Shown piece by piece: positions 3,312-53,282 of a stretch of 55,033 bases of DNA; the stretch's first letter is position 1, and every line of letters starts with the position of its first letter. The DNA is taken from assembly GCA_049292975.1 (NCBI GenBank), contig JBATRZ010000062.1, positions 1-55,033 on the forward strand, written 5' to 3'. Under the pieces are notes generated by a model that worked only from the letters and a program-made list of their open reading frames with translations, was not told the DNA's origin and ran no database searches. This DNA comes from Candidatus Saccharimonadales bacterium (GTDB taxonomy: Bacteria > Patescibacteriota > Saccharimonadia > Saccharimonadales > JACDBH01). The translations under genes were made by a program, and so were the position numbers.

Positions 3312-3386
3312 TGGAGAGGGGAGTATCCCCTCTCCACGTGCCGGGCACTGGCATAGCCAGATGCTCGGACTGCTCTCCCCTAGCCC
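3312..3386. repeat. Structured repeat, copy A (variable hairpin plus conserved hairpin plus ACTGCTCT tail)
   Basis: TGGAGAGGGGA-GTA-TCCCCTCTCCA, then CGTG-CCGGGCA-CTGGC-ATA-GCCAG-A-TGCTCGG-ACTGCTCTCCCCTAGCCC. Confidence 0.8.
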
Positions 3387-4297
3387 AGAAGCTTCAACAA
3401 GTAGAAGCGTTCGCGGTTGCCCTTGGCGCCCGCTACTTCGCTGTCGGCTTTGTCTATGATAATAAAGTACTGGTTTAGCCAGGTTTCGAAGTCTTTTAGG
3501 ATGGCACGGCGTATCTTGTCGTTCTTAATGACGCCCTTGTGCAGCGACCTACGCGCCTCACGGACTTGTCGAGCGGCAGAGCCACTCGCCCTGCCCGTGC
3601 TTTTGGCGCCGAGAGCCGTTTTTCCTCTGTGGTACTCGGGCAAAGTATCATCAATACTCCCCCCTCCGTTCCTCGAGGAAAAAACGGCTTCGGCATCCAA
3701 ACGCGAAGGTCGTTGAAGCTCAGCAATGATTTCGAACTGCGGCTTGCACATAGCGGCTATTTGCGTGTTAGGACCAGAGATTTTAGCCACATACGGCAGG
3801 ATTTCCCGCAATGATATGAAGCTTACATCCATCACAATTATGTCCGGCCGCTCACCCACCCCACCCTCTTTGTGAGAGGACAGTCCTCTCACATAATCGC
3901 GGATGTCGGTCTGCTCGTGCAATTCGATCTGCGGGTGGCCCACAAGTGTTGGGTGCAGCTGGTTGGTACCTACGTCTACTGCGATGACTTTTGCGGCACC
4001 GTTTTTTAGCGCAAAGTCGGTAAAACCGCCGGTGCTGCTGCCAACATCTAGCACTATTTTATCCTTGAATTGCAGCTTCAGCACGCGGGCGACACTGGCC
4101 AGCTTAAGCCCTGCCCGGCTGACATATTGGACTTTGGCAATAAGCCTGATGTCTGCGTCTTCAGAGACAATTGTACCTGGCTTGGTAAGGATGGTACCGT
4201 TTACGCGTACCTGACCGAGCTTGATAAAGCTTTCGGCCTGGCTACGCGTAGGCACCAACCCTGCCTCAGTCATGAGCTGGTCTAGGCGCTTCTTCAT
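3380..4297 (-). CDS. tlyA: TlyA-family rRNA 2'-O-methyltransferase carrying two in-frame insertions
   Basis: An S4 domain (RLDQLMTEAGLVPTRSQAESFIKLGQVRVNG), the SAM motif VLDVGSSTGGFTDF, DVSFISL and KPQFE are present. The protein is about 50 aa longer than typical TlyA. Confidence 0.85.
   Translation of the reverse strand: MKKRLDQLMTEAGLVPTRSQAESFIKLGQVRVNGTILTKPGTIVSEDADIRLIAKVQYVSRAGLKLASVARVLKLQFKDKIVLDVGSSTGGFTDFALKNGAAKVIAVDVGTNQLHPTLVGHPQIELHEQTDIRDYVRGLSSHKEGGVGERPDIIVMDVSFISLREILPYVAKISGPNTQIAAMCKPQFEIIAELQRPSRLDAEAVFSSRNGGGSIDDTLPEYHRGKTALGAKSTGRASGSAARQVREARRSLHKGVIKNDKIRRAILKDFETWLNQYFIIIDKADSEVAGAKGNRERFYLLKLLG
3546..3711. repeat. Roughly 166-bp nested imperfect palindrome, in frame in tlyA
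   Basis: Three arm pairs nest inside each other. 3608-3627 (GCCGAGAGCCGTTTTTCCTC) pairs with 3675-3694 (GAGGAAAAAACGGCTTCGGC). 3602-3606 pairs with 3697-3701. 3546-3555 (GACCTACGCG) pairs with 3702-3711 (CGCGAAGGTC). Confidence 0.7.
3872..3892. repeat. 21-nt perfect palindrome GTGAGAGGAC-A-GTCCTCTCAC, in frame in tlyA
   Basis: Read directly from the sequence. 10-nt arms with a single central base. Encodes VRGLSSH. Confidence 0.95.
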
Positions 4298-5621: not shown

Positions 5622-5644
5622 TACAGATTACTGATTAGAGAATC
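5622..5644. repeat. Left inverted-repeat arm bracketing four-helix-bundle gene 1
   Basis: TACAGATTACTGATTAGAGAATC matches the reverse complement of 6016-6038 at 18 of 23 positions. It overlaps the stop codon. Confidence 0.6.
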
Positions 5645-6018
5645 TGCTTCACCCTCCTGTTCTGCTTATTAGCTTTTTGTAATCCTGCAAGTATTCTTTG
5701 TGCCTCATCAATTTGAAGCAATGTTTTTACACTTAGCTCTTCGCTTATGTAGCCAATGCCTTTTGCGATCAGGTACTGGCACTCGAGTTCTGTCAGAGAA
5801 CCTTTTGCTATCGCATAGAACTGATCTTTTTCCTTTGGACCAAATCTACCAAAACCTTCTGCAATATTTGAGCAAACAGACACCGCTGCTCTACGCATTT
5901 GACTTACCAAGCCGAATAACTCAGATTTTGGAAATTCTTTCGTTATCTCGTAAGTAAGTAGCGAAATTTCATAGGTCTTTTGCCATACGACCAAGTCTTT
6001 AAAGTTAGCTGCAGCCAT
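5635..6018 (-). CDS. Four helix bundle protein (23S rRNA intervening-sequence protein family)
   Basis: FKDLVVWQKTYEISLLTYEITKEFPKSELFGLVSQMRRAAVSVCSNIAEGFGR...AKGSLTELECQ is the hallmark of the PF05635/TIGR02436 family. GC content is lower than in the flanks. Confidence 0.85.
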   Translation of the reverse strand: MAAANFKDLVVWQKTYEISLLTYEITKEFPKSELFGLVSQMRRAAVSVCSNIAEGFGRFGPKEKDQFYAIAKGSLTELECQYLIAKGIGYISEELSVKTLLQIDEAQRILAGLQKANKQNRRVKQIL

Positions 6019-6266: not shown

Positions 6267-6349
6267 GGGGCTTATGAGAAAACCTAGGTTTTCTCATCGT
6301 GCCGGGCAGCGGCAAAGCCGCATGCTCGGACTGCTCTTTCCTAAGCCCC
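6267..6349. repeat. Structured repeat, copy B
   Basis: GGGGCTTA / ATGAGAAAACC-TA-GGTTTTCTCAT / CGTG-CCGGGCA-GCGGC-AAA-GCCGC-A-TGCTCGG-ACTGCTCTTTCC-TAAGCCCC. The upper stem differs from copy A by compensatory changes. Confidence 0.8.
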
Positions 6350-7059: not shown

Positions 7060-7176
7060 GCCAGAAATTTCACAGTTTTCATTTGGCATTTTACAATAAT
7101 TTTTCATTTTACATCTGTTATTGGAGTCATTTGTGAAATGTGAATTGTGAAATTAATGAAAATTGTAAATTGTTAC
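7060..7176. repeat. Gene-less inverted-repeat module of the TGTGAAA word family, downstream of rpsF
   Basis: The left part carries AAATTTCACAG...CATTTTACA...TTTTCATTTTACAT. The right part carries TTTGTGAAATGTGAATTGTGAAATTAATGAAAATTGTAAATTG. It shares the 15-mer TGTGAATTGTGAAAT and the 9-mer TGTAAATTG with 25459-25500. Confidence 0.75.
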
Positions 7177-7190
7177 GGGCTAATTGTTAA

Positions 7191-7571
7191 TTACTCTTCG
7201 TCTTTAGGTTCGTCGTCGGCTTTGTCGCCGCGCTCGGCGGCTTTGGCAGCCTTCTCGGCCCTGGCGGCTTCGGCCTTGGCTTGCTTCTTTAGATCGGGGC
7301 GGACAATCAAGAAACGTACAACCTCGTCAGTGATGTTAAGGGTGTCGTTAATCTTTTGTATGCCCTGGCCGTCCATCTCAACCGTGTAGAACACGTAAAT
7401 AGCAAATTCCTGCTTATTGATCGGGTATGCCAGCTTGCGCTTGCCCCAGTTATCGGTAGCGGTGACCTTACCGCCATTCGCGGCAATGATAGCCTCTACC
7501 TTGCCGCTTGCCTTCTCAAGGTCAATCTCAAGACCCTGATCAAACAATACAGCAATTTCGTATTGTGCCAT
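7191..7571 (-). CDS. rpsF: 30S ribosomal protein S6
   Basis: MAQYEIAVLF...WGKRKLAYPINKQEFAIYVFY is the bS6 signature, followed by an acidic/Lys-rich tail. Gene order rpsF-ssb-rpsR. Confidence 0.9.
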   Translation of the reverse strand: MAQYEIAVLFDQGLEIDLEKASGKVEAIIAANGGKVTATDNWGKRKLAYPINKQEFAIYVFYTVEMDGQGIQKINDTLNITDEVVRFLIVRPDLKKQAKAEAARAEKAAKAAERGDKADDEPKDEE

Positions 7572-8847: not shown

Positions 8848-10212
8848 TTACAGGCCTCGGGACGGCTGCGTGCCAGGCTTGAAGACATCCAAGTATGCAA
8901 GGTTCCAGAACGGTGCAACCGTACCTGCCTGGGTGGGGTTGTCTACCGGGTAGTATGTGTCCCTGACTTCTCCATATGCTGCAGGTATATCCGTTGAGCC
9001 AGTAATTACCAAGAACCTCTGCTTACCGCCGCCCACCGCCATAACACTGCCTGCGCTAACTTTGCCGTAGCCAGGCAAGTTTGGGCCGGAGTCAAGGTAT
9101 GAATGCTTTAGTGTCCAGCCATTTTTACTAACCTCATCCAACATCTGCTGGTGTGTCAGCGGATAAGCGGTAGTGTTGTACTTGGTGTACACCTCGTATT
9201 TAATTCCAGGCGCACCGCTAAACTCATAACTATAGGTAATAATCTGCCCGGCATCGTTTTTTATTTCCGTCACTTTAGGAGTACCTAAGTATGATTTTAA
9301 ATATCTAAAGTTATACCCTGCCTGTGTGTTATCCAGCTGGGCATAATCCTGGCCTTTCGCTGCGAGATCTGCCGCCTCACGGCTAAAACCAAGTTCACTA
9401 AATGCACCCTCAAGTGAAGCAAAATCGCCGCTGCGCATCTCGATATCCTGCGTAATCCCGAAACTCAAGTTATCGTCACTTACAGAATCCTTATAAATAG
9501 CCACTTTACTGAGCTGCGCCGTACCGGCATTGATGGTCATGTGCACCATGAGCGTATCGCAGTTTGCATCGTACTTTGGGTCATCTTTGGATTGAACAGA
9601 CTTGCCGTATAAATTATACGAACCGTCCGGACCAGGCGTCACCACAGCACCATCTTGTAGTACGTTGCCGTCTTTATCCGTCAGATCCAGACTAGCACCC
9701 ATGGAGCGTATTAGAACTGAATCCTCACCCACGTAATCCCTGATGTCAAACGCCTGCACATCAGAGTCTCCGCTATAGCTCTGGTACAGACCGCTTAATG
9801 AGCTTGTCTCGGCAAGTGCTGTTGTTGTCCTGTCCTTGAATAGCAGCGTGGTTGTAGACCAAGGGTTAGTATCAGAGCCGGTACAGATAAGTGCTTTCGG
9901 GCCAAAATATTCCTGCTGCTCAATCTTCCAGAAGGTTATCTCATCCTCAATATTACTCAGCTGCTCAGCCTTCATAGTGTCTGCGTACAGCTCGGTTGCC
10001 AGCTTGCTTACTGCTTGGGTTATTGCACTTTGCTGGAGCTTAGAGTCATGCCGCTTCAGCAAATAACCGGCCCCTAAGGCAACAACTAATCCAATGCTAA
10101 TCCCAAGCACCAGCCAGCGCTTGCGCGGCCGTCTTTTAGATACCGGCGGTTGCGGCGATTCGGGTACTGGACTGGCTGCACTGCCAAGCGGTTGGGAATC
10201 AAGCTGCTGCAT
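8848..10212 (-). CDS. Membrane-anchored extracytoplasmic hypothetical protein (454 aa)
   Basis: Pro-rich N-terminus, then a single TM helix (WLVLGISIGLVVALGAGYLL), then a large Ser/Thr/Asp-rich domain. Confidence 0.55.
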   Translation of the reverse strand: MQQLDSQPLGSAASPVPESPQPPVSKRRPRKRWLVLGISIGLVVALGAGYLLKRHDSKLQQSAITQAVSKLATELYADTMKAEQLSNIEDEITFWKIEQQEYFGPKALICTGSDTNPWSTTTLLFKDRTTTALAETSSLSGLYQSYSGDSDVQAFDIRDYVGEDSVLIRSMGASLDLTDKDGNVLQDGAVVTPGPDGSYNLYGKSVQSKDDPKYDANCDTLMVHMTINAGTAQLSKVAIYKDSVSDDNLSFGITQDIEMRSGDFASLEGAFSELGFSREAADLAAKGQDYAQLDNTQAGYNFRYLKSYLGTPKVTEIKNDAGQIITYSYEFSGAPGIKYEVYTKYNTTAYPLTHQQMLDEVSKNGWTLKHSYLDSGPNLPGYGKVSAGSVMAVGGGKQRFLVITGSTDIPAAYGEVRDTYYPVDNPTQAGTVAPFWNLAYLDVFKPGTQPSRGL

Positions 10213-10226
10213 ATCTATATAATACT

Positions 10227-12401
10227 CTATTCTTCCTCGGGCTCATGCGCCCCGGTATCGCCAGCGCCGCCAAAGACGTCATCCATGGAACTTACCAGCA
10301 CCTCCCGCGGGCGCGAACCGTCCGCCGGGCTGATAATGCCCTGCTCTTCCATCTGCTCGATCAACCTGGCGGCTTTGCCGTAGCCGATGCGCAGCTTGCG
10401 CTGCAGCAGGCTGGTGCTGGCCTTGCGGGCATCTATGACCACATGGACGGCGTCCTTAAGCTCGGCCTCGTCGCCGGACGTGCCGTCGTTAGAGTAATCG
10501 GCTACAATACCGCCCTTGCCGTTCAGCTGGACGGGTTGGCTAACCACCTCATCATCATACTGCGGGCCGCGCTGCATCCGCAGGAAGTCCATGATAGCGT
10601 GCGTCTCTTCATCGGTAATAAAAGCTCCCTGAATACGCTTAGGCTGCGGCATGTCAGGGGTCTGGAACAGCATGTCGCCCTGGCCCAGCAGCTTCTCGGC
10701 GCCGGAATTATCCAGGATAATGCGTGACTCAAGTTCCTGGGATACCGTAAAGGCAATGCGGGCCGGGATGTTGGCCTTGATTAGGCCGGTGATAACAGTA
10801 GCCCGCGGACTCTGCGTGGCCAGCACCAGGTGGATGCCGACAGCCCGCGCCTTTTGGGCGATACGCACCAGCAAAGCCTCAACATCACGGGCGGCCATCA
10901 TCATAAGGTCGGCCAGCTCGTCTATGACGATGACGATGTAGGGCATGCCTTCTTCCTTCATGACGGCGTTGTAATCAATAATATTGCGCTTTTTGTTTTC
11001 CTCAAGCGTACGGTAGCGGCGCTCCATTTCGGCCACCGCCCACTTGAGGGCGCTGATGGTCTTCTCGGGCTCGGTGATGATTGGGGTCAAAAGGTGCGGA
11101 ATATCGGCATACGGCGCCATTTCGACCCGCTTGGGATCTACCAAGATGAGTTTGAGGTCGCTCGGGCTGTTGCGATAAAGCAGGCTGGTAATTAGCGTGT
11201 TGATCATAACCGACTTACCCGCCTTGGTCTGGCCGGCGATAAGCAGGTGCGGCATGTCTTCGATAGCGGATACGATGGGGACACCTGCGATGTCTTTGCC
11301 CAGGGCAAAGCCAAGCTGCTTGTTCATGGCCGACCAGTCGCTAGAAGCCAGCACACTGCTGATACGCACCATTGCAGGCTTGACGTTAGGCACTTCCACG
11401 CCCACAGCTTTCTTGCCGGGAATCGGCGCCTCGATACGGATAGCCTTGGCGCCAAGGTCCAGCGCCATGTTGCTGTCCAGCGCTTTAATCTTGCTCAGTT
11501 TCACGCCTGCCTGAGGTTTGAGGGTGTACTGGGTAACGCGCGGCCCAACATTAGCCCCTTCCATCTCAACCGAGATATTGAAGTGCTCCAAAGTATCCTG
11601 GATGGTCTTGGCGTTGGCGTTCACGTCGCCCGGGTCTGCCTTGTCCTGCTTTTGGTTCAGCAGCTCCAGGCCCGGGAACTCCCAGTTAGGATCGGCTGCG
11701 GCGGTTAGGGCCGAATGATCCTCTTTGGCCGTCAGCTTAGCAGGCATGCTGTTCCTGACACTGGCCGTAGCTGGCGTCTTGTTATGCTCTACCGGTACGC
11801 CCTCTTTGAGCTGGAAGTTACGCAAGCTGGCAGCACCAGCCAGGGCAGCCATTTCTTCTTGCTCGCCTTCATTGTCTTTTTTCCTGAATAACCCGGCTAC
11901 CTTACCCAGTACAAGCGGTGAGATGCCAAAGCTGAAGAACAGCGCCAGCATTGCCAGAACCAAGAATAAGATACTGGCAGGTATCGGGCTCAGCGCGGTC
12001 AGCACCATGTTGCCTGCCAGGCTGCCCACCTTGCCGCCCAGGCCGCCCGTGTAGGCGCCATCGGCCGCACGGTCAGCGAAAGCCGTAAACAACCAGCCGG
12101 ACAGGAATGCCAGCAAGAATACCATGCTGAAGGAATTGCTTAAGGGCACCTTGTGATCCTCGCTTTTGAACTTGAGCACCCCAAAGTACACCAAAGCCAC
12201 CGGCGCGAGCCAGGCAGCCCAGCCAAAGGCCCAGTAAAAGCCGCTGAACAAACCCTTGGGCAAGTCGCCGCCGGCGCCAAAACCGCCGACCAGCAGGAAC
12301 AGGGCGGCCACAAACAGCAGGATAGCCGCCGACTGGCGCCAAAACAGGTTTGGCTCCTTGTATTCTTCTTTGACTGATTTCCGCTTTTTCTTTTTTGCCA
12401 T
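10227..12401 (-). CDS. ftsK: DNA translocase FtsK
   Basis: N-terminal TM helices, Walker A AGQTKAGKS, Walker B IVIVIDELADLMM, and a C-terminal gamma domain (LLQRKLRIGYGKAARLIEQMEEQGII). Confidence 0.95.
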   Translation of the reverse strand: MAKKKKRKSVKEEYKEPNLFWRQSAAILLFVAALFLLVGGFGAGGDLPKGLFSGFYWAFGWAAWLAPVALVYFGVLKFKSEDHKVPLSNSFSMVFLLAFLSGWLFTAFADRAADGAYTGGLGGKVGSLAGNMVLTALSPIPASILFLVLAMLALFFSFGISPLVLGKVAGLFRKKDNEGEQEEMAALAGAASLRNFQLKEGVPVEHNKTPATASVRNSMPAKLTAKEDHSALTAAADPNWEFPGLELLNQKQDKADPGDVNANAKTIQDTLEHFNISVEMEGANVGPRVTQYTLKPQAGVKLSKIKALDSNMALDLGAKAIRIEAPIPGKKAVGVEVPNVKPAMVRISSVLASSDWSAMNKQLGFALGKDIAGVPIVSAIEDMPHLLIAGQTKAGKSVMINTLITSLLYRNSPSDLKLILVDPKRVEMAPYADIPHLLTPIITEPEKTISALKWAVAEMERRYRTLEENKKRNIIDYNAVMKEEGMPYIVIVIDELADLMMMAARDVEALLVRIAQKARAVGIHLVLATQSPRATVITGLIKANIPARIAFTVSQELESRIILDNSGAEKLLGQGDMLFQTPDMPQPKRIQGAFITDEETHAIMDFLRMQRGPQYDDEVVSQPVQLNGKGGIVADYSNDGTSGDEAELKDAVHVVIDARKASTSLLQRKLRIGYGKAARLIEQMEEQGIISPADGSRPREVLVSSMDDVFGGAGDTGAHEPEEE

Positions 12402-13936: not shown

Positions 13937-14041
13937 CTAGTCTTGCTGGGCTACGTTGAGCAGCTTAGCAGAAACAACCGGCGTGTCTTCCAGGTACAGC
14001 TCCAGCGCCTCCTGGACATTGGCAACCGCCTCGTCATATGT
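13937..14041 (-). pseudogene. Possible remnant of a HicB-like antitoxin C-terminus (34 codons, no start codon)
   Basis: The minus-strand frame reads TYDEAVANVQEALELYLEDTPVVSAKLLNVAQQD-stop, resembling the HicB-family ...EA..N..EAIEL.LE segment. The upstream part is replaced by a terminator hairpin and an in-frame stop. Confidence 0.25.
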
Positions 14042-14071
14042 AAAAAACCGCCGAAAACTCGGCGGTTTTTT
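14042..14071. terminator. Bidirectional rho-independent terminator
   Basis: AAAAAA-CCGCCGA-AAAC-TCGGCGG-TTTTTT: a 7-bp GC stem flanked by an A6 tract and a T6 tract. Confidence 0.8.
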
Positions 14072-14119
14072 ATTTTATAGTTCAAATCGTCTCCCGGCGA
14101 TTTGTCCATGGTCTTCGGC

Positions 14120-14303
14120 CCGGCTTGCAAACCCCGCCTGATTCGGGCGTTGTTCAAAAATACAATAGAGAGCAAGGTGCGAGCCTAAAATTCCTACTTA
14201 AATTAGTTTGGAATTTTATGGCCGACTGCAAGGAGTCCTCCGAGCGTATTGTATTTTTTGACAACTGGCCGAGTCACGCGGGGTTTGCGCCGGTCAGTTT
14301 TTT
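14120..14303 (+). ncRNA. Candidate structured ncRNA (rod-like 174-nt hairpin with central bubble, 6S-like); strand tentative
   Basis: Nested pairings: 14120-14137/14278-14293, 14139-14146/14269-14276, 14149-14167/14247-14265 and 14186-14194/14210-14218. There is an asymmetric central bubble (18 nt versus 28 nt). A T6 tract at 14298-14303 follows directly on the plus strand. Confidence 0.3.
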
Positions 14304-14364
14304 GCATACTTTTTTGCTGACCCAAAAAAGTATGGGTTTGGTTCTTTACCTAAAGAACTGAGAA

Positions 14365-16473
14365 CTAATCCGCTTGGTCAGTGTTGAGCAACTTAGCCCG
14401 CATCTCCTGGAACCGCTTTTGCTGCTCGGCGGCGATCTGCTCGGGTGTCTTAGCGGCTACAGTCTGGGCAGGCTGGCCGCTGCTGCCCTGCTTGGCCTCA
14501 GCCTTGCCGCCACCAACGATATTGACGACAGGTATGACTATCGGGCTGCGGTTGGTGGCTTCGAACAAATAGTGCGTGATGTGATCTTTTAGCTCAGTCT
14601 TGAAGCGGTCCAGATCAACGCGCTTGAAACGCTGGGAAACTGCCCGGCGCAGTTCGGCCCTAAAACCATTCATGAGCTCTTCGTTATCACGCATGTAGAT
14701 GAAGCCGCGGCTAATTATATCCGGGCTGGTCATCAGCTGGCCGCTTTTCCTATCAATAGTCAGGACCACGGCTACCAGGCCTTCTTCGGCCAGGACCAGG
14801 CGGTCCTTGATAACGACCGAGCTGACAATGGCACCCGTCTGGTCTACCAGCACCGAGCCGTGCGGGACCTGCCCGGCAGATTCCATGGTGTCTTCGGTAA
14901 GGGCAATGACCTCGCCGTTCTCGGCGTTGATAGCGTTCCTGCGCGGAAAGCCTTCTTCGACAGCTATCTCAATATGGCGCTGCTTGGAGCGGTACGAACC
15001 CATGATAGGCACAAAGAACTTCGGCCTTGTTACGGCAATCATTTCCTTGAATTCATCGATGCTGGCGTGACCCGATACGTGCAGCGGGCCAACTCCATCA
15101 AGATCGTGCGTCTCGTGGCGGAAGACGTGTACGCCTTTGCGCATCAGGCTGTCTACCATATTACCGATAAGGGCGTCGTTGCCCGTTTCGGGAATAGGCG
15201 TGCTGGACAGGATGACAGAGTCCTGCTCTTTGAGTTTGATGTGGCGGTGTTCGCCGCTGCTCATACGCTGCAATGCGCTAGACGGCTCGCCTTGGCCGCC
15301 AGTACAGACCACGACAACTTCGTCATCCTTCATGTTTGGTACTGAGGCGATCGGCACGAAGGTGCCCTTTGGAATCTTCATGAAGCCGTTGCGCACTGCC
15401 ATTTCCAGCGTGCTAACCATGCTGCGGCCGTCGAGCGCAATCTTCTTGTTGTGGTGCACGGCAGCGTTCACGATCATCTGGATGCGGTTTACGTTGGTGC
15501 TAAAGATAGCTACAAAGATGCGGCCGGGTGCCCTATCCATAATGTCTACGAAAGACTGCTCAATGGTAGATTCGCTTGGCGTGCGGCCGGGGCGCTCGGT
15601 GGTAGTGCTCTCTGAGCACAGTACCAAAACACCGCTCTGGCCGATTTCTATCAAACGTTCCATATCGGTGCGTTCGTGGTCGAGGGGCTCTGGGTCAAAG
15701 CGGAAGTCGCCGGTGTTTATCAGGCGGCCAACCGGCGTATCCAGTACCACGATGGTAGAGCCCGGGATAGAGTGCGTCACGCGCACCAGTTCCACAAAGA
15801 ATTCGCCGATCTTAAGCTTCTCGTGGGTATTTTCGTTCATGATGACGGTTTGCAGCTCAAAGCCCTCGGGCAGCGGCAGGCCGAAATTTTCAAATATTTC
15901 CTGCACGCGGCCAATGGTAAAGCGGCTGCCGTAAACCGGCGCCGGGAACATCGGGACGATGTGCGGCAGACCGCCGATGTGATCGAGGTGGCCGTGGGTA
16001 ATGATATAGGCCCGCAGCTTGTGCTTGATGCTCTCCAGGTAGGTCGTGTCACAAATGGCGTAATTAATGCCCGGCAGGTCTACGCCCAGGTCGGTGCCGG
16101 CATCTATAACAACAGCGTCGTTCTGGTACTCGACCAGCATCATGTTCTTAGAACCGCCGCCGTCCATGCCGCCAAGGCCGATTATCTTCAGGCGCGGGCG
16201 GTCATCTATGACGTTCGCCCTGCCCTTTGCTTCTGGTGATTTAGGTGTCGCCAGAACCGCGTTGATGGCGCGGGTAGCGTCTTCATTAACGCGCTTCTGG
16301 GCACGGATAGCCGCGCCGCGGCTGGACTTTTTGAGGCCATTGCCGTTCTGTTGCTGGGGGGCGTTACTGCCTCTCTGCTGGCCTTGGCCGCGCTGACGTT
16401 GGTCCGGCGCTTGCCGGCCAGGTCTTACGTTTCTTGGTTTACCCTGTGATTTGTCGTAGGGTTTTTTATCCAT
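14365..16473 (-). CDS. rnj: Ribonuclease J with low-complexity N- and C-terminal extensions
   Basis: Metallo-beta-lactamase motif ITHGHLDHIGG, a beta-CASP region, and about 90 aa of Gln/Gly/Arg-rich N-terminal extension. Confidence 0.9.
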   Translation of the reverse strand: MDKKPYDKSQGKPRNVRPGRQAPDQRQRGQGQQRGSNAPQQQNGNGLKKSSRGAAIRAQKRVNEDATRAINAVLATPKSPEAKGRANVIDDRPRLKIIGLGGMDGGGSKNMMLVEYQNDAVVIDAGTDLGVDLPGINYAICDTTYLESIKHKLRAYIITHGHLDHIGGLPHIVPMFPAPVYGSRFTIGRVQEIFENFGLPLPEGFELQTVIMNENTHEKLKIGEFFVELVRVTHSIPGSTIVVLDTPVGRLINTGDFRFDPEPLDHERTDMERLIEIGQSGVLVLCSESTTTERPGRTPSESTIEQSFVDIMDRAPGRIFVAIFSTNVNRIQMIVNAAVHHNKKIALDGRSMVSTLEMAVRNGFMKIPKGTFVPIASVPNMKDDEVVVVCTGGQGEPSSALQRMSSGEHRHIKLKEQDSVILSSTPIPETGNDALIGNMVDSLMRKGVHVFRHETHDLDGVGPLHVSGHASIDEFKEMIAVTRPKFFVPIMGSYRSKQRHIEIAVEEGFPRRNAINAENGEVIALTEDTMESAGQVPHGSVLVDQTGAIVSSVVIKDRLVLAEEGLVAVVLTIDRKSGQLMTSPDIISRGFIYMRDNEELMNGFRAELRRAVSQRFKRVDLDRFKTELKDHITHYLFEATNRSPIVIPVVNIVGGGKAEAKQGSSGQPAQTVAAKTPEQIAAEQQKRFQEMRAKLLNTDQAD

Positions 16474-16491
16474 TATTTATCCTTAAATTTA

Positions 16492-17088
16492 TTATTTAAT
16501 TTTCTGTAATATGGCGGGGATGCGCGCGAAGTCATCTATTAGTGTCTGGCGCATGCCGCCGTTGTATAACGCTGCTGCGGGATGGAAAAGTGGTAAATAC
16601 ACTTGCCCTTTGTAGCGTTTGGGTTCGCCGTGAACCTGGTTGATTGAAGCCCCAGGCAAAAAGCAATTCATACTGTGACGTCCTAGTGTCACGACAATCT
16701 TAGGTTGAATTACCTCTAACTGTGCCTCCAAGTATGGCAGGAAAGCGGCTTTTTCGTCCGGGCTGGGGTCGCGGTTGTTAGGTGGCCGGTACTTGACGAT
16801 GTTGGTGATGTAAATGTCCTGGCGTTCCAGCCCAATGGTTGCGAGCATTTCGTTCAGGAACTTGCCTGCCGCACCCACAAACGGAATGCCCTGTTCGTCC
16901 TCGTTCTTGCCTGGTGCTTCACCGATGAACACAATGTCTGCATCAGGATTACCATCCCCAAACACGAGACGATTGGCCGTACGAGCCAAATCCGGGCAGA
17001 CATTCTGACGCAAAATCTCTTCTTTGATTTCATCAAGAAGCTTTTGCTTGGAATCTGGAATCTGGAATTTAGAATCTGGGTCAGCCAC
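16492..17088 (-). CDS. Uracil-DNA glycosylase, family 4
   Basis: VFGDGNPDADIVFIGEAPGKNEDEQGIPFVGAAGKFLNEML plus a C-terminal HPAAAL. GTG start at 17088 preceded by an AAGAGGGG Shine-Dalgarno sequence. Confidence 0.85.
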   Translation of the reverse strand: MADPDSKFQIPDSKQKLLDEIKEEILRQNVCPDLARTANRLVFGDGNPDADIVFIGEAPGKNEDEQGIPFVGAAGKFLNEMLATIGLERQDIYITNIVKYRPPNNRDPSPDEKAAFLPYLEAQLEVIQPKIVVTLGRHSMNCFLPGASINQVHGEPKRYKGQVYLPLFHPAAALYNGGMRQTLIDDFARIPAILQKIK

Positions 17089-17136
17089 CGTGCACCCCTC
17101 TTATTCCAAATTCCAGCTTCAAACTTCCAGCTTCTG
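17050..17136. repeat. Heptamer-word imperfect palindrome spanning the UDG start codon
   Basis: The left arm is GGAATCT GGAATCT GGAATTT AGAATCT GGG (17050-17080). The right arm is TTCCAAA TTCCAGC TTCAAAC TTCCAGC TTCTG (17104-17136). Confidence 0.8.
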
Positions 17137-17205
17137 CTTTCATGTCTGCCCTAATCTGGTCGAGCTTAGCTTGTTTGTCTTTTGCACTCACGTGCAGATT
17201 ACCTC

Positions 17206-19338
17206 TTATTTCTTGTCACGGGCTGCTTGTTTTATTGACAGGTTCAGCCGGCCGCGGTCATCTATGGCTACCAGCTTGACGGTGACCAGCTGGCCTTCCT
17301 TCAAGACATCGCTTGGCTTATTAACACGCTCTTCTGAAATCTCAGACACATGCACCAGGCCGTCCTTGCCCGGCAGAATCTGCACGAAGGCACCGAAATC
17401 TAATAGGCTTACAACCGGACGGTCATGATAAACACGGCCGATTTCCGGCTCTTCTACGATGGTCTGAATCCACTGGATAGCAGCGTCAATCTTGGCTTTG
17501 TCGGGGCTGGCAATCATTACCGTGCCGTCATCTTTGATGTCAATCTCGGTGCCGGTTTCGGCGGTAATCTTCTGGATGGTTTCGCCGCCCTTGCCGATGA
17601 CTTCACGGATCTTATCAGGATTGATGGTAATTGATTCGACACGCGGCGCGTACGGGCTCATCTCGTCCCTGGATGCGGGAATAGTCTCCAGCATGTGCTT
17701 AAGGATATGAGCGCGGCCGTCACGGCCCTGCTCCAGGGCTTTAGCAAGGATTTCTACCGGCAGGCCGTGAACCTTCATGTCCATCTGCAGCGCAGTAATG
17801 CCTTCGCTCGTTCCGGTAACCTTAAAGTCCATGTCGCCCGCAAAGTCCTCGGCATCGGCAATGTCACTGAGTACATATGGCTTATTGCCGTCCATCATAA
17901 GGCCCATGGCGATACCGGATACCGGGCGCTTCAGCGGCACGCCGGCGTCCATAAGGGCCAAAGTGCTCGAGCACGTAGCAGCCATGCTGGTGCTGCCGTT
18001 CTGGCTCATGATTTCAGTCACCGACCGGATAGTGTACGGGAACTCGGCTTCAGTAGGCAAAACAGCGGTCAAAGCGCGCTCGGCCAGGTAACCGTGGCCA
18101 ATCTCACGCCTGCCGGGTGAGCCCAGGCGGCGGACTTCACCAACAGTGTAGCCAGGGGCGTTGTAGTGGTGCAGGTAGCGGCGCTCGCCTTCTTTTTCCA
18201 TGGTGTCTACCAGCTGGACATAGCTAAGCGGCGCCAAGGTAACAATGTTAAGGGCCTGGGTCATGCCGCGGGTAAAGATGCTGGAGCCGTGGGTGCGCGG
18301 CAGCACGCCGACTTCGCTACTTAGCGTGCGGATTTCGGTGGTTTTGCGGCCATCGGGACGGATTGATTCACGCACAATACCGTCACGTACGTCTTTGTGC
18401 AGGGCCGCGGTGAAGGCCTCGTCATACTCGTTCTTAAGATTTGCGTAGGCCTCTTCACCGATTTCTTCTACAAAGTGGTCATGCATGGCGCTGCGGAGCT
18501 CTGACACCAGCTGGTTGCGCTCAGGATAGGCAGCGCGCAACCCCATGCCCATCTTGCCGGCTGTCCACGCGTCTACGCGGGATTGGATATCGGCATCCGG
18601 ACGAACCAGCTCGTAGTCCATCTGCATAACACCGACTTTCTTCACAAGTTCTTTCTGCAGTTTAATGGCTGGCTGGAAGGCTTTGAAGGCAAAATCCATG
18701 GCCTTTACCACTTCTTCTTCTGATAATTCTGAGGCGCCAGCTTCGACCATCATGATGCCGTCCCCGGTACCGGCCACGACCAGATCAAGCTTGCCTGTTT
18801 CTAAAGCCGCCAGGGGCATAAAGGCCTCAAAACCGCCCTTGTCGTTTATGCCGACCCGCAGGCCAGCTACAGGGCCGTCAAACGGCGCACCGGTGAGCAT
18901 AAAGGCGGCAGACATGGCAATCATGGCTATCATATCGGGGCGGAAGCCTGGGTCCATGCTAAGGACTGAGGCGACACCTTGGACTTCATTGCGGTAACCC
19001 TTGGGCCACAGCGGGCGGATGGGGCGGTCAATCAGGCGGCCGATAAGAATGGCATCGTCGCTCGGGCGGCCTTCGCGCTTAATGAAGCGGCTGCCGGATA
19101 TCTTGCCGGCGGCGTACATCTTTTCTTCGTAATCAATTGATAACGGGAAGTAATCCATTCCCTTGACGCTGCCGTCAGATACCATGGCGGTACCTAGCAC
19201 GACAGTGTCGCCATATGTCGCCAGCACCGAGGCCGAGGTTCTGAAGCCGACGCGGTTTACTTCTAACTTCAGGGTGCGGCCGCACAGCTCGGTCTCGACA
19301 CTGATAATGTCTTTGTTAAGCGGGTTGATAGTACTCAT
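17206..19338 (-). CDS. pnp: Polyribonucleotide nucleotidyltransferase (PNPase)
   Basis: Two RNase PH domains, a KH domain (IREVIGKGGETIQKI) and an S1 domain (GRVYHDRPVVSLLDFGAFVQILPGKDGLVHVSE). The first ATG at 19338 is used because the track start is TTG. Confidence 0.95.
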   Translation of the reverse strand: MSTINPLNKDIISVETELCGRTLKLEVNRVGFRTSASVLATYGDTVVLGTAMVSDGSVKGMDYFPLSIDYEEKMYAAGKISGSRFIKREGRPSDDAILIGRLIDRPIRPLWPKGYRNEVQGVASVLSMDPGFRPDMIAMIAMSAAFMLTGAPFDGPVAGLRVGINDKGGFEAFMPLAALETGKLDLVVAGTGDGIMMVEAGASELSEEEVVKAMDFAFKAFQPAIKLQKELVKKVGVMQMDYELVRPDADIQSRVDAWTAGKMGMGLRAAYPERNQLVSELRSAMHDHFVEEIGEEAYANLKNEYDEAFTAALHKDVRDGIVRESIRPDGRKTTEIRTLSSEVGVLPRTHGSSIFTRGMTQALNIVTLAPLSYVQLVDTMEKEGERRYLHHYNAPGYTVGEVRRLGSPGRREIGHGYLAERALTAVLPTEAEFPYTIRSVTEIMSQNGSTSMAATCSSTLALMDAGVPLKRPVSGIAMGLMMDGNKPYVLSDIADAEDFAGDMDFKVTGTSEGITALQMDMKVHGLPVEILAKALEQGRDGRAHILKHMLETIPASRDEMSPYAPRVESITINPDKIREVIGKGGETIQKITAETGTEIDIKDDGTVMIASPDKAKIDAAIQWIQTIVEEPEIGRVYHDRPVVSLLDFGAFVQILPGKDGLVHVSEISEERVNKPSDVLKEGQLVTVKLVAIDDRGRLNLSIKQAARDKK

Positions 19339-19501
19339 CAGCAATCCTATTCCTTCGGGCTTATGCGGCAAGGTTCAGATATACGCTCCGGAAATGCGCG
19401 GGATATACGTATAGCTGTGCTCTGCCGACAAACCCTATATAAGCGTTATGTTTGTGCATTTCAGCGGGCGCACTATGCAGTGCGACCTAGAAGTGTGCAA
19501 A

Positions 19502-19768
19502 CTACTTGCGCAGGCCAAGTTTCTTGACGGTGTCCAGATATAATTGGCTGTCTTTTTCAGAGATGTACCGCAGCAGTTTCTTGCGGGTACCAACCATCTG
19601 GAGCAAACCCCGTCTAGCTGCATGGTCTTTTTTATTGACCTTGAGATGCTCGGTCAGCTCGGTGATACGCGCAGTCAGGATACCGACCTGAACTACCGGA
19701 CTACCGGTGTCGTTCTTGGCCGTTTGCATGCTTGCAATCACCTTCTGTTTGTTCTCACTACTAATCAT
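19502..19768 (-). CDS. rpsO: 30S ribosomal protein S15
   Basis: ...TGSPVVQVGILTARITELTEHLKVNKKDHAARRGLLQMVGTRKKLLRY is the uS15 signature. Sits upstream of pnp, the classic rpsO-pnp arrangement. Confidence 0.95.
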   Translation of the reverse strand: MISSENKQKVIASMQTAKNDTGSPVVQVGILTARITELTEHLKVNKKDHAARRGLLQMVGTRKKLLRYISEKDSQLYLDTVKKLGLRK

Positions 19769-19798
19769 GTAGCCCTTATTTTATCAGATGACAACCCT

Positions 19799-20125
19799 TT
19801 ACGCAAGGGGTGGGAAGCCGTCCTTGTCATTTACCTTGCCGGGGGTGCCGGGAATTATTACTACCGCTCCAAGCTTTTCGAGCCAACTGCTGGCTGCCTT
19901 GGGCTCCATACCGCCCTCGCCCAGATGCGGCCCGTTACCGTCCCGGTGTACGGCACGATAAATACCGCCATTAGAAGGATGCCGTCTTTTGGCCCTTTCC
20001 AATTCGCCGCTTTCGGCAGCACGGTGCAGCCCGTCATGTATCTGGTCTATAGATTCCGGGTCAAAATCTTCACCGGGGTCTCTGTCTTCCCCGCCGGCTG
20101 GATAAAACGGTATGATATCGGCCAT
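19799..20125 (-). CDS. Hypothetical protein (108 aa)
   Basis: ATG-started ORF between truB and rpsO. No motif recognised. Confidence 0.4.
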   Translation of the reverse strand: MADIIPFYPAGGEDRDPGEDFDPESIDQIHDGLHRAAESGELERAKRRHPSNGGIYRAVHRDGNGPHLGEGGMEPKAASSWLEKLGAVVIIPGTPGKVNDKDGFPPLA

Positions 20126-20151
20126 GTACTTATGATTATATAAAAGCCCGT

Positions 20152-20889: not shown

Positions 20890-21093
20890 CTTAGATTCAA
20901 GTATAGCGTAGTCCTTGGGGACGACAGTAAAGCTCGCATTTGGATGCAGGGTGGATTTTCTTGCTGCGAAGCGCAAAGGAGCCGTATTTAAATACGGTGA
21001 CTGACATGGTCTCTTTTTCCTAGCAAGCAAGCTAAGCTTGTTGCTTGAAAAAGCCACGATCTCGCATCGTAAAGCAAAAATCTGCGCTGCGCC

Positions 21094-23829: not shown

Positions 23830-23853
23830 ACCGCCCCAACAGGGGCGGTTCTT
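23830..23853 (+). terminator. Rho-independent terminator of rpsT
   Basis: ACCGCCCC-AACA-GGGGCGGT followed by a T-rich tail. Confidence 0.7.
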
Positions 23854-23871
23854 AATAATCCGTAAAATCCC

Positions 23872-23925
23872 CATCTGTAAAAGGTCAGACCCTTGGGTCT
23901 CCTTCCTTGGGTCTCCTTCAAGCCA
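23872..23925. repeat. Diverged inverted-orientation copy of the ATCTGTTAAGGGTCAGACCCTT element, with its own 14-nt tandem word
   Basis: CATCTGTAAAAGGTCAGACCCTT, then GGGTCTCCTTCCTT GGGTCTCCTTCAAG. Confidence 0.6.
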
Positions 23926-27742: not shown

Positions 27743-28705
27743 CTAGACAGACTGGCAACGGGGGCAAGTATGGGTGCCGCGGCCGGCAACTTTGGTTTTG
27801 ATAATAACCGTGCCGGGGTGGCGCGGGCAGTCCTTGCCCTCACGCCGGAACACACGGGCAAAATCTATGTAGCTCCCCTTCTTACCCTCGGCATTCACGT
27901 AATTCCTGTCCGTCGAACCGCCCTTTTCTATAGCTAATTCCAGTACTAGCCTAAGCTCAGAATATAGAATATAGATTTTGGATTTTGGAATATCGGCCAC
28001 TTTGCTTGCGGGGTGGATTTTGGCGCCCCAAAGTGATTCGTCGGCGTAGATATTGCCTACTCCGGCCAAGACAGTTTGATCGAGTAATGCTGCTTTGATG
28101 GACGTCTTTGCCCTTTTTTGCAAACGTTCGTAGAGAATTTTGGCGGTAAACTCATCACTCAGCGGCTCGGGCCCCACCTTCTTGAAGAAGTCTATATTTG
28201 GCACCTCAACAGTTGGCAACAGCCGCATCCAGCCAAACTTCCGCTGGTCATTAAAATACATGTGAGAGGACTGTCCTCTCACATCTTCGAGGTGGAGGGT
28301 TGCGCGGGTGGATTTGTCTGGCAATCTGCCGATGAGACTGTCGTTGGGATGCCCTGCCCCAAACCGCTCCTCTGGAGTAAAGTCCTTGGTCTTTAGTCTT
28401 CCGTCTTCAGTCTTGACTGGTGACCGCTGACTGGTGACCGCTGACTCCCGTTTACGCACGTAAACAAGCTGGCCCGTCATCTTCAAGTGAATTACCAGGC
28501 TGTAGCCAGAGTCTAAATCTATTATTAAAACTTTGGCACGACGGCGTACATCAATAATTTGTGCGCCAATTAAAAACTGCGCTACATCACCCGGCGCATT
28601 GGGAAAAGACTTGGGCCAATCAAAATCTACTGATTTGACCGTTTTGCCAATAATTAATTTATGCAAGCCACGCCGGACAGTCTCTACCTCTGGTAATTCA
28701 GGCAT
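27743..28705 (-). CDS. mutM: Formamidopyrimidine-DNA glycosylase (Fpg/MutM) with in-frame insertions
   Basis: MPELPEVETVRRGL, H2TH (LLDQTVLAGVGNIYADESLW), and a C-terminal zinc finger CPRH...CPRCQ. About 50 aa longer than E. coli Fpg. Confidence 0.9.
   Translation of the reverse strand: MPELPEVETVRRGLHKLIIGKTVKSVDFDWPKSFPNAPGDVAQFLIGAQIIDVRRRAKVLIIDLDSGYSLVIHLKMTGQLVYVRKRESAVTSQRSPVKTEDGRLKTKDFTPEERFGAGHPNDSLIGRLPDKSTRATLHLEDVRGQSSHMYFNDQRKFGWMRLLPTVEVPNIDFFKKVGPEPLSDEFTAKILYERLQKRAKTSIKAALLDQTVLAGVGNIYADESLWGAKIHPASKVADIPKSKIYILYSELRLVLELAIEKGGSTDRNYVNAEGKKGSYIDFARVFRREGKDCPRHPGTVIIKTKVAGRGTHTCPRCQSV
27959..27993. repeat. Heptamer tandem array in mutM coding sequence
   Basis: AGAATAT AGAATAT AGATTTT GGATTTT GGAATAT, encoding PKSKIYILYSE on the minus strand. 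Confidence 0.85.
28262..28282. repeat. 21-nt perfect palindrome GTGAGAGGAC-T-GTCCTCTCAC, in frame in mutM
   Basis: Read directly from the sequence. Encodes VRGQSSH. The flanking bases extend the palindrome to ATGTGAGAGGAC.GTCCTCTCACAT. Confidence 0.95.
28389..28445. repeat. Heptamer-periodic module, in frame in mutM
   Basis: GTCTTTA GTCTTCC GTCTTCA GTCTTGA C, then TGGTGAC CGCTGAC TGGTGAC CGCTGAC. 57 nt, equal to 19 codons. Confidence 0.85.
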
Positions 28706-43884: not shown

Positions 43885-45666
43885 TTACTTACGTTTGACT
43901 TGTTTTAACAGGTCGTTCAAATCTTTGTCGGCGGTAAGCAGGCGGCGGGTTTCGTCGTCGCCGGCATCGGCAAGCCGCTCGTTTATAAGCTGTTTTTGAT
44001 GTTTTACGTAGTGCGCAACTAAGCGTTCTTGCAATCGAGTGACTTCCCAGTGGAGTTCTGTAATCTCGAGCGATCGATATAATTCATCGAATTGTAATGC
44101 AGTAATTTTTACATAATCGGCCATGGATTGCAACTGTTTAAAATTACTCCTTTGGGCAGATCCAGCGGGGGTGCCTTTAGTTGCGGCTCCAAAATCGGGG
44201 TTTGCCTTTAAAAACTCGAATAATTTTCGTGCCTGGACTTCTATAAACATGTCTGGGGTCAGTTGCGGCACTTCGTCTCTAAGACCCGGGTGCATAAGCA
44301 GCAATGACAGCAGGTGCTGCTCGGTCTTGCGCTGCTCAATCGTTTCCTTGCTCTCGTTTCCAGGGATTATCCTTGGAATTCTGAGGCGTTTGGATGATGG
44401 GGATGGTTGATACAGCTTGGCGCGCATCGCGTCTTTGCTGACGCCGATAGTTTTGGCCAGTTCCGATATGTAGTGGTCCTGTTCGACTTGGTCGGTGAGG
44501 CCGCGGATGATATTGAGCACGATATCGGTGAATTCGCGTTTGCCTTTGCCCGACTCAATGTCCAGCAGGTTCTTGTAGCGGTCAATCAGCCAGTCCACGG
44601 CGTATTGATGTTTGTCTATGGCCTGCTGCCAAAACATGGGGTCCTGACGGATGAGCTCATCGGGGTCTTTGCCGTCAGGGATAGTGATAATGCTTACATT
44701 GACGCCGATTTTCTGCGCCAGCGGGATGGCCCGCTCGGTGGCATTGATACCGGCACGGTCGGCATCAAACGCAAAGCGGATATCGCCCGCGTACCGGCTG
44801 AGGTCTTTAAGATGGAACTCTGTCAGGGCGGTACCGGCCGAGGCCACAACGTTCTTCACACCCGCCTGGTGGCTGGCCACAACATCCAGGTTGCCCTCTA
44901 CCACTACGCTGTAGCCGGCCTTGCGGATGGCATCTTTGGCCAGGTGCAGGCCGTAAACCTGGCGGCCTTTGTCATACAGCAAAGTGGCCGGCGTGTTGAT
45001 GTATTTGGGCGATTCTTTATCGTCGGTAAGGCTTCGGGCCGTAAAGCCTACCACCCTGCCCTGCGCATCTGATAGCGGCACCATTATCCGCCCGCGGAAC
45101 ATATCGCCCAGGCCGCGGTAACGCTTTGTTACAAGCCCTGCCCGGGTCATTTCTTCTTCTGTAAAGCCCTTCTTACCTAGGAATGTGTACAGGGCATCGC
45201 CCGTGTTGGGCGAGTAACCAAACCTGAATAAAAGCACGGTTTCTTTGCTAAATAACCGCTTGCCCAGCAGGTATTCCAACGCCGGTTTGGAGCTCTTTAG
45301 CTGGGTCTGATAAAACCGTGCCGCCAACTCAATAACTTCATACAAACGCTCCTTCACCTTGTGAGAGGACTGTCCTCTCACATTGAATTGCTCTAGGTCT
45401 ACACCGGCCTTGCGCGCCAGCAGCACCAGTGTTTCCTTAAAATCAAGGCCTTCGATCTCCTGGATAAAAGTGAACATGTCACCGCCCTTGCCCGAGCTGA
45501 AGTCGTGCCAAATCTGCTTCTCGGGACTAACCATGAAGCTTGGTGTCTTCTCGTTGCCGAAGGGGCTTAGGCCCTTCAGGTTGCGGCCGGAACGTTTTAA
45601 CTGGACATACTCGGAAATAACATCCTCTATAAGCAGCTTGGCTTTGACCTCTGACACCGCATCCAT
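43885..45666 (-). CDS. dnaG: DNA primase DnaG (zinc-ribbon ligands substituted)
   Basis: ...GLSPFGNEKTPSFMVSPEKQIWHDFSSGKGGDMFTF (zinc-binding-domain homology) and a TOPRIM domain (VVVEGNLDVVASHQAG...FDADRAG). Confidence 0.9.
   Translation of the reverse strand: MDAVSEVKAKLLIEDVISEYVQLKRSGRNLKGLSPFGNEKTPSFMVSPEKQIWHDFSSGKGGDMFTFIQEIEGLDFKETLVLLARKAGVDLEQFNVRGQSSHKVKERLYEVIELAARFYQTQLKSSKPALEYLLGKRLFSKETVLLFRFGYSPNTGDALYTFLGKKGFTEEEMTRAGLVTKRYRGLGDMFRGRIMVPLSDAQGRVVGFTARSLTDDKESPKYINTPATLLYDKGRQVYGLHLAKDAIRKAGYSVVVEGNLDVVASHQAGVKNVVASAGTALTEFHLKDLSRYAGDIRFAFDADRAGINATERAIPLAQKIGVNVSIITIPDGKDPDELIRQDPMFWQQAIDKHQYAVDWLIDRYKNLLDIESGKGKREFTDIVLNIIRGLTDQVEQDHYISELAKTIGVSKDAMRAKLYQPSPSSKRLRIPRIIPGNESKETIEQRKTEQHLLSLLLMHPGLRDEVPQLTPDMFIEVQARKLFEFLKANPDFGAATKGTPAGSAQRSNFKQLQSMADYVKITALQFDELYRSLEITELHWEVTRLQERLVAHYVKHQKQLINERLADAGDDETRRLLTADKDLNDLLKQVKRK
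45361..45381. repeat. 21-nt perfect palindrome GTGAGAGGAC-T-GTCCTCTCAC, in frame in dnaG
   Basis: Read directly from the sequence. Encodes VRGQSSH. Confidence 0.95.
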
Positions 45667-53180: not shown

Positions 53181-53202
53181 AATACCGATAATTATCGCAC
53201 AG

Positions 53203-53250: not shown

Positions 53251-53260
53251 TTTTTTTGGG

Positions 53261-53282
53261 AAAAAAGGGTCCGACCCTTTTT
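53261..53282. terminator. Bidirectional terminator-like hairpin
   Basis: AAAAAAGGG-TCCGA-CCCTTTTT. Confidence 0.6.

Follow-up and report, generated by a model that had tools for sequence, protein, structure and literature searches.

The window analysed here (contig JBATRZ010000062.1, positions 1 to 55,033, of a Candidatus Saccharimonadales bacterium; 55,033 nt in total) carries one short palindrome inside three unrelated genes, tlyA, fpg (mutM) and dnaG. This palindrome is probably a hairpin of the repetitive extragenic palindromic (REP) type, cognate to an HUH/Y1 single-stranded DNA (ssDNA) transposase that resembles REP-associated tyrosine transposases (RAYTs) and is conserved and syntenic in Saccharimonadales. 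The original prediction, made from the letters of the window, had offered among its options a miniature palindromic element tolerated in frame, conceptually like the Rickettsia palindromic elements (RPEs), and a recognition site for a nuclease; a dispersed element of the former kind is supported, and the nuclease option probably corresponds to the recognition hairpin of an HUH transposase.

The 21-nt core of the palindrome, GTGAGAGGAC-W-GTCCTCTCAC, was scanned for in the window as GTGAGAGGACWGTCCTCTCAC, which yielded three exact matches, at 3872-3892 (centre A), 28262-28282 (centre T) and 45361-45381 (centre T), confirming the predicted genes, coordinates and centre bases. The expected number of matches was 0 in 100 dinucleotide-preserving shuffles of the window, in keeping with the earlier assertion that the three copies cannot be chance. 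No further match was found in the window with up to 3 mismatches allowed, a separate window scan returned zero copies at 1-5 mismatches and only chance-level matches at 6-7 mismatches, and the half-site on its own showed no other enrichment there. The dyad had been described as 21 nt long; it is indeed perfect, but its true size in all three window copies is 11+1+11 = 23 nt, TGTGAGAGGAC W GTCCTCTCACA, T...A flanked, and in fpg it reaches 25 nt. Copy 1 (TGTGAGAGGAC A GTCCTCTCACA, 3871..3893) lies in tlyA (3380-4297, minus strand), encoding an rRNA methyltransferase with S4 and FtsJ domains (PF01479 and PF01728 in homologues, and by alignment), copy 2 (ATGTGAGAGGAC T GTCCTCTCACAT, 25 nt, 28260..28284) in fpg/mutM (formamidopyrimidine-DNA glycosylase; 27743-28705, minus strand), and copy 3 (TGTGAGAGGAC T GTCCTCTCACA, 45360..45382) in the primase gene dnaG (43885-45666, minus strand; PF01807, PF08275 and others in homologues), where its position about 100 residues in would place it between the zinc-ribbon and DNAG_N domains.

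Each window copy stands alone, 17-24 kb from the next. As ssDNA, copy 1 is predicted to form a 10-bp stem with a 3-nt loop (-10 kcal/mol, z = -5.5), and the palindrome units as a whole form stems of 10-11 bp with 3-nt loops at -6 to -12 kcal/mol and z-scores of -4 to -7. The window holds 13 perfect palindromes with short loops and arms of ≥9 nt, where ∼1.2 would be expected; this one alone repeats, and the others look like single terminator hairpins. An assembly artefact was ruled out by the recurrence of identical copies across independent assemblies (ENA, NCBI and Logan); the tlyA and dnaG copies are also represented in the group of same or sister strains formed by loci L011, L023 and L025 (99.6-99.99% identical), the dnaG copy specifically in the related strains L023 and L025. 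Because ∼88% of the window is coding, the landing of palindromes in genes is unsurprising; their survival there is the surprise.

In public data, the palindrome occurs almost exclusively in Saccharibacteria. When 185,579 species, each represented by one genome, were scanned, only three loci were recovered, all from Saccharibacteria metagenome-assembled genomes (MAGs), a scan of JGI metagenomes with a slightly degenerate pattern recovered seven, and a scan of viral contigs gave 0 matches. MAG CAZXOA has two exact copies, one within the arginyl-tRNA synthetase (ArgRS) gene argS (L001, a 46,712-nt contig), where it reads VRGQSSH, and one upstream of tgt in apparently intergenic DNA (L002); the copy in L003 is intergenic. 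Four metagenome copies fall within long open reading frames (ORFs) in the phase used by the window genes, namely in a Mur ligase gene (L008), in the RNase HII gene rnhB (L009), and in two genes read without a database match, which we take from their sequences to be MnmA-like (L005) and DinB-like (L007). Loci L006 and L010 were left out of the evidence, since their flanks differ, their gene context is unclear and they are possibly chance or unrelated palindromes; by a rough estimate for a collection assumed to hold ∼5e11-1e12 nt, the degenerate 21-mer could give a few random matches.

The host genes therefore vary by genome: tlyA, fpg and dnaG in the window, argS and the region upstream of tgt in CAZXOA, and others in the metagenomes. 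The palindrome is absent from the CAZXOA DnaG (P0151, on the contig of L001) and from the ArgRS of the window's own species, encoded just outside the window, and the other carrier genes (argS, mnmA-like, Mur ligase, dinB-like and rnhB) have no orthologue in the window. This distribution bears on the proposed uptake or recombination signal, which would have been built by biased uptake and point mutation, like uptake signal sequences (USS) and DNA uptake sequences (DUS). Saccharibacteria are reported to be naturally transformable, and the length-neutral occurrence in the DnaG linker described below is an outcome expected of mutation-driven accumulation. However, three copies per ∼67 kb compare with roughly 1 per kb, with many near-matches, for USS and DUS; copies with 1-5 mismatches are missing; the specified motif spans 21-23 nt; the genes that are hit differ from one genome to the next; a transposase gene has copies clustered around it; and Fpg and TlyA changed in length. 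We regard an uptake signal as very improbable.

The connection to a transposase is seen in L003, where the palindrome overlaps the stop codon of a 209-aa gene and two more copies, each with one arm mismatch (GAGAGG/CCTTTC), lie just upstream, one of them abutting the start codon. The 209-aa protein matches the Pfam family Y1_Tnp (IS200-like, PF01797; E = 3.8e-9). Three copies surround the transposase gene of L004 in the same arrangement, and in L014-L017 an 80%-identical homologue is accompanied by four copies each, two per side (those of L014 were seen by eye, the automated repeat search having missed them). The transposase gene is thus directly flanked by the window's palindrome in six fetched loci, and in four further homologues the annotated N-termini extend through an upstream palindrome copy. 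Palindrome pairs 63-79 nt apart were found solely beside these genes.

Both sequence and structure place this protein near the RAYTs. Its only and best NCBIfam match is NF047646, "REP-associated tyrosine transposase" (E ∼1e-10), all of 44 homologues keep the HUH motif H77-F-H79 and nearly all keep Y120, and an AlphaFold model built from these 44 (predicted local distance difference test score, pLDDT, 83; predicted template modelling score, pTM, 0.81) has as its top Foldseek match in the PDB the E. coli RAYT with its REP hairpin (4er8, chain 4er8_A; E = 7.6e-7), ranked ahead of the ISDra2, ISHp608 and IS200 transposases (IS200/IS605 TnpA structures). The RAYT-like protein also has an extra C-terminal helical region of ∼60 aa. 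The family is very common in Saccharimonadales (the best 120 matches are 60-100% identical), and the gene order folD, racemase, murD, RAYT, response regulator is kept in L014, L020 and L021, including in a complete 1.21-Mb genome, and the murD-RAYT-regulator core is present in L003 and L004. This conserved synteny indicates vertical inheritance, which, together with low copy number, characterises RAYTs as opposed to insertion sequences (Bertels et al., 2017, PMC5581495). The palindrome is also embedded in the signals of its neighbouring gene: the TGA of its third phase is the RAYT stop codon in L003 and L014, and the upstream copy abuts the RAYT start codon in L003, L014 and L020, which hints at translational autoregulation.

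Diverged and paralogous RAYTs were shown to carry their own palindromes, differing by compensatory stem changes. In L020 (GCA_016187125.1), two RAYT-like paralogues at 10001-10621 and 14462-15091 lie 4 kb apart; the first is flanked by three copies of TGTGATAGGTT.AACCTATCACA and the second by two copies of GCTACAAGGAT.ATCCTTGTAGC, both of them 11+1+11 palindromes, distinct for each paralogue, with one dispersed intergenic copy per type in 20 kb. In an alignment of 15 variant 25-mers, double-sided changes affect 8 of the 11 stem pairs, and standard pairs fill 97% of cells compared with 33-55% in controls with a slid partner column (the observed values were attained by 0 of 500 shuffles), with the caveat that most of the 15 variants came to light through being palindromes, orthologous position having led only to L012 and L018. 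All variants share an unchanged AGG...CCT core, and GTAG is present only in the repeat of the second L020 paralogue, inside the stem.

Under the REP-type reading, the enzyme would recognise the folded hairpin on ssDNA and would spread copies of it in trans, as proposed for REP/REPIN-RAYT systems (REPINs being doublets of two inverted REPs). Most landings would then fall in genes, the genomes being ∼88% coding, and selection would retain only those copies that lie in flexible loops or linkers and are read in the hydrophilic stop-free phase.

Several observations weigh against this reading. The RAYT-like protein scores 38.9-40.8 bits against the NF047646 cutoff of 80 and thus misses the curated threshold, a phmmer search with it against the PDB gave no match, and a profile search against the PDB gave marginal ISDra2 matches only, at the HUH motif. 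In the complete genome represented by L021, the syntenic RAYT has no flanking palindrome. No RAYT was found by tblastn in the window, and ∼12 kb of extra flank from the same strain contains neither a RAYT nor a further palindrome copy; searched likewise, the syntenic neighbours of the RAYT gave only a distant response-regulator paralogue in the window. Loci L004 (RAYT) and L005 and L008 (intragenic copies) share the metagenome Ga0209542. Copy number looks low, with 3 copies in ∼67 kb and 1-2 exact copies in the carrier representative MAGs, and the palindrome has neither a GTAG nor a CGTC tag and occurs as singlets instead of REPIN doublets. The RAYT-adjacent copies are mostly mismatched at stem pair 5/17 (G.T on one strand, A.C on the other), the perfect downstream copy of L003 being the exception, whereas the dispersed copies are mostly perfect, either as GAGAGG/CCTCTC (three in the window, L001, L002, L005 and L008) or as GAAAGG/CCTTTC (L007); both resolved forms would be expected if a mismatched hairpin intermediate were repaired or if one arm served as template for its partner. 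Net length changes at the host sites of 0, +1/+2, +4, ∼+7 and +10 aa misfit the simple insertion of a fixed unit, and the variable-length replacement of loop sequence is left unaccounted for. To our knowledge, RAYT activity is documented in vitro but cellular transposition is not, the literature has yet to establish that RAYTs mobilise REPs in vivo, and the spread of REPs is still unsettled.

The reading phase of the intragenic copies is uniform. All three window genes read the palindrome as GTG AGA GGA CWG TCC TCT CAC, as had been predicted, to give VRGLSSH in TlyA (residues 136-142), VRGQSSH in Fpg and VRGQSSH in DnaG (residues 96-102); the predicted constraint on phase is likewise borne out by the TGA of the third phase, visible in the palindrome sequence. 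Among genuine intragenic copies, with the two DnaG variants described below included, 10 of 10 use one and the same of the two stop-free phases (GTG AGA GGA CNG TCC TCT CAC), a usage with a probability of ∼0.001 by a simple binomial, and the second stop-free phase (CERTVLSH) is limited to spurious 5′ ORF extensions. DNA insertion cannot sense codon phase, so this bias is read as a selection filter, the Gly/Ser-rich hydrophilic peptide being tolerated and the Cys/Val/Leu peptide not. A T precedes and an A follows every coding copy, and the upstream codon ends in AT in six of eight coding copies and in TT in two.

Selection might instead have acted on VRGxSSH as a protein motif, with the DNA palindrome incidental. 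The same peptide does occur in at least eight proteins, but the same DNA is found in intergenic sites and in another phase around RAYT genes, and synonymous variants are missing, the only changes being paired G/A and C/T substitutions that alter the peptide (R/K, S/F) to give V(R/K)G(L/Q)S(S/F)H in the metagenome and window copies. Furthermore, L018 keeps the palindrome yet encodes AGGQTSR, and among 510 retrieved homologues the peptide occurs only at the palindrome, with no orthologue encoding it in non-palindromic DNA as the original prediction had allowed. This explanation is effectively refuted and is the least probable of those considered. On the TlyA model, residues 136-142 end a short peripheral helix and run into a loop with pLDDT below 50.

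Alignments with orthologues show that the palindrome does not add a constant length to its hosts. In DnaG, where the linker is variable, the window sequence EQF-N-VRGQSSH-KV-KERLY replaces EQF-R-GSGRSNA-KE-KEQLY of relatives with a net change of 0 (∼120 orthologues), and the dnaG DNA differs from that of the 81%-identical L013 over ∼24 nt, within which identity is at the chance level. In Fpg, the palindrome replaces the three-residue hairpin turn of ED-GSx-LFFNDQRKFG for a net gain of 4 aa compared with orthologues, at a turn that holds large unrelated insertions in other Saccharibacteria. The prediction that the TlyA linker is ∼7 residues shorter elsewhere holds only approximately, the difference being ∼10 residues in Saccharimonadales orthologues. 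The ArgRS of L001 is longer by 1 residue than the E. coli and Neisseria enzymes and by 2 than the palindrome-free ArgRS of the window's own species, and the RNase HII of L009 is ∼6 to 7 residues longer than the T. maritima enzyme. As net length varies across hosts, no fixed unit is added, and the expectation of exactly seven inserted codons fails in DnaG (0), Fpg (+4), TlyA (∼+10) and ArgRS (+1 to +2).

These lengths also count against an autonomous miniature element that would insert cleanly and in frame as exactly 21 nt (7 codons), without a transposase. Three identical copies in unrelated genes and in one phase would suit such an element, as would the ∼6-7 extra residues of the L009 RNase HII; on the other side stand the net changes in the four other hosts, a conserved unit of 23-25 nt, the clustering of copies around the RAYT-like gene, and the comparison of dnaG with L013, which already points against a clean 21-nt empty site. 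We consider an element of this kind unlikely.

The DnaG linker was occupied more than once or exchanged between lineages. In L012 (P0144) and L018 (P0127), which belong to a DnaG clade other than the window's, a related palindrome occupies the same linker, shifted by one codon and with total linker length unchanged. That of L018, GCGGGAGGTC A GACCTCCCGC, is a perfect palindrome differing from the window type by three compensatory pairs of changes, and that of L012 is an imperfect hybrid of the window and L018 types. Palindrome-free DnaGs with the GxxxxNAKE linker exist in both clades (P0122 and P0123 near the window; P0134 near P0144); therefore either the linker acquired a palindrome on two or more occasions or lineages swapped this segment. 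A single ancient gain is unlikely given these palindrome-free members with the ancestral linker, with lateral transfer being possible, and an origin of the P0144 near-palindrome in situ from ordinary linker sequence was rejected, as its relative L018 has a perfect compensatory palindrome instead.

These recurrences bear on the possibility of a static, non-mobile site, either an operator for a dimeric protein (possibly the RAYT-like protein as regulator) or an mRNA hairpin with a host function. The perfect dyad with its invariant AGG...CCT core, the compensatory changes that preserve the stem at the same DnaG site in L018, the overlap of RAYT-adjacent copies with start and stop codons, suggestive of autoregulation, and the absence of decayed copies from the window are all compatible with such a site. 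Nevertheless, the host genes change between genomes with no conserved position except the DnaG linker, copies lie in mid-gene, and identical 23-mers in unrelated genes require a copying process whatever their later use, so that a function acquired after dispersal would be compatible with a REP-type hairpin and no replacement for it. A purely static site is accordingly rather unlikely, if somewhat less so than the 21-nt insertion element.

A more tentative proposal, to which we give a minor though appreciable chance, is that the RAYT-linked hairpin may spread in Saccharimonadales by templated overwriting of short DNA and not by insertion, through a hairpin or fold-back intermediate in which one arm would template the other. 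Templated overwriting would explain the length-neutral replacement in DnaG, the one-codon-shifted recurrence there with its three compensatory stem changes, and the presence of perfect dispersed copies in both resolved forms of the imperfect RAYT-adjacent copies.

The kind of system is already known from REP/RAYT pairs and intragenic REPs. As in E. coli TnpA_REP with REPs and bacterial interspersed mosaic elements (BIMEs) and in the Pseudomonas REPINs, the hairpin lies beside a low-copy HUH/Tyr gene that is passed on vertically, with further copies dispersed, each paralogous RAYT is paired with a cognate repeat of its own, and the best structural match is 4er8; as in GTAG REPs (Di Nocera et al., 2013), the neighbouring ORF takes its stop codon from the repeat. 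The differences are that the Saccharimonadales protein falls below the NCBIfam RAYT cutoff and has a C-terminal extension, that the palindrome ends in TGTGA...TCACA without the tag of the GTAG and CGTC superfamilies, that the stem is perfect or near perfect (10-11 bp, 1-3-nt loop), that the two-REP inverted unit of REPINs is missing and dispersed copies are few singlets, and that the host has a roughly 1-Mb genome of the Candidate Phyla Radiation (CPR). REPs are usually extragenic, whereas all three window copies and at least seven others are intragenic.

Intragenic REPs have been described as a minority class in Opitutus terrae, Thauera and Rickettsia conorii (RPE-4 and RPE-6), within ORFs for known proteins, where they are thought to occupy linkers and loops, with replication and repair genes and tRNA synthetases prominent among the hosts (Di Nocera et al., 2013, PMC3733652). 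The hosts dnaG, fpg, dinB-like, rnhB and argS are of the same sort. Those REPs are insertions that add residues, more than half being dimers or groups encoding 20-30 aa (PMC3733652), whereas single units of 7-8 codons here replace residues partly or wholly and are always read in one phase. RPE-1 and its relatives similarly place palindromic DNA in frame in essential genes of a reduced genome to give a surface peptide, but are 100-150 bp long, add 30-50 residues and have no linked transposase, in contrast to the 21-25 nt, and the +0 in DnaG, of the element studied here. The IS200/IS605 elements (IS608, ISDra2) share the Y1 HUH fold, ssDNA hairpins at both gene ends and a stem mismatch that gives polarity; however, their gene moves with the ends and is multicopy, whereas here the gene is fixed at a syntenic locus and the hairpin alone is dispersed. 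What differs here is the host clade, the divergent RAYT-like protein, the missing tag, the singlets, the apparently strict single phase, and the variable-length replacement, including the recurrent, compensatory and length-neutral case in DnaG. Literature searches returned no paper that connects RAYTs or in-frame palindromes with Saccharibacteria or Patescibacteria.

Other hairpin elements occur in TlyA. In the TlyA gene of P0004 (L022, ∼10350-10440), an unrelated in-frame hairpin element of ∼80 nt (AGATCTTAGATCT...AGATCTAAGAACTAAGATCT, -35.8 kcal/mol) occupies exactly the linker that holds the 21-mer in the window, making this linker a hot spot for palindromic elements; together, the linker recurrences could mean either that few sites are permissive or that hairpin elements target certain DNA. 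A second in-frame element of the window's tlyA (3542-3730, minus strand, 189 nt, TlyA residues 190-252) forms one long hairpin (RNA minimum free energy -96.5 kcal/mol), and its peptide matches its own opposite strand, as in the Rickettsia RPEs, to which this element of the C-terminal half of tlyA is a closer analogue than the 21-mer. It is predicted to be disordered, replaces six codons (AGANTK), and is conserved in P0003, P0004 and P0023; it is missing from strain L011, whose DNA matches at 99.99% identity on the upstream side and 98.98% on the downstream side, a step suggesting a recombination breakpoint. Just downstream of the tlyA stop, an 11+3+11 hairpin, TGGAGAGGGGA GTA TCCCCTCTCCA (3312-3336), overlaps a 52-nt repeat (3331-3382) that recurs with 83% identity at 6292-6343. 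In Fpg, many homologues match in two stretches that skip window residues ∼84-110 (region ∼84-112, VRKRESAVTSQRSPVKTEDGRLKTKDF...), which suggests another lineage-specific insertion, and homologue P0364 contains LRKGLSSPSS, possibly a decayed copy.

Elsewhere in the window, two genes for PF05635 "23S rRNA-intervening sequence protein" (5635-6018 and 25096-25458, both minus strand; one weakly bAvd-like) are bracketed by AT-rich inverted and direct repeats, one of the TGTGAAAT type (25058-25119/25438-25504 and 7069-7191) and the other of a second type (5611-5642/7633-7664), and may constitute small mobile cassettes. A repeat family with the hairpin AAGGGTCTGACCCTT, present in both orientations at 23849-23894, 53202-53262 and 54475-54529, looks like a shared terminator module. 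Tandem 15-nt repeats at 23656-23781 encode a Lys/Ala/Pro-rich sequence (AAGAAGGCC...), suggesting a histone-H1-like basic tail. The minus strand carries about 42 of the 53 long ORFs, and GC skew stays negative along the whole window, which probably lies within one replichore; scans of the 55 kb found no tRNAs and no Rfam families. In L022 (GCA_964644965.1), positions 13998-20910 next to ychF contain a large serine recombinase, a Toprim-domain protein and an MmeI-like restriction-modification enzyme; this block, probably an integrated element, is absent from the syntenic region of the window.

The REP-type reading extends REP/RAYT partnerships to the ultra-small, gene-dense Saccharibacteria of the CPR. 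Short, unambiguous copies in well-aligned essential genes allow filled and ancestral sites to be compared codon by codon, a comparison that already shows replacement and not simple insertion, and the peptide V(R/K)G(L/Q)S(S/F)H is usable in annotation as a marker of such sites. With the two other in-frame hairpin elements of TlyA, the palindrome suggests that part of the "extra loops" of CPR proteins derives from palindromic DNA elements. If templated overwriting by the RAYT-linked hairpin is true, loops of essential genes would be refuges for a vertically inherited pair of repeat and transposase in genomes where intergenic space is nearly nil.

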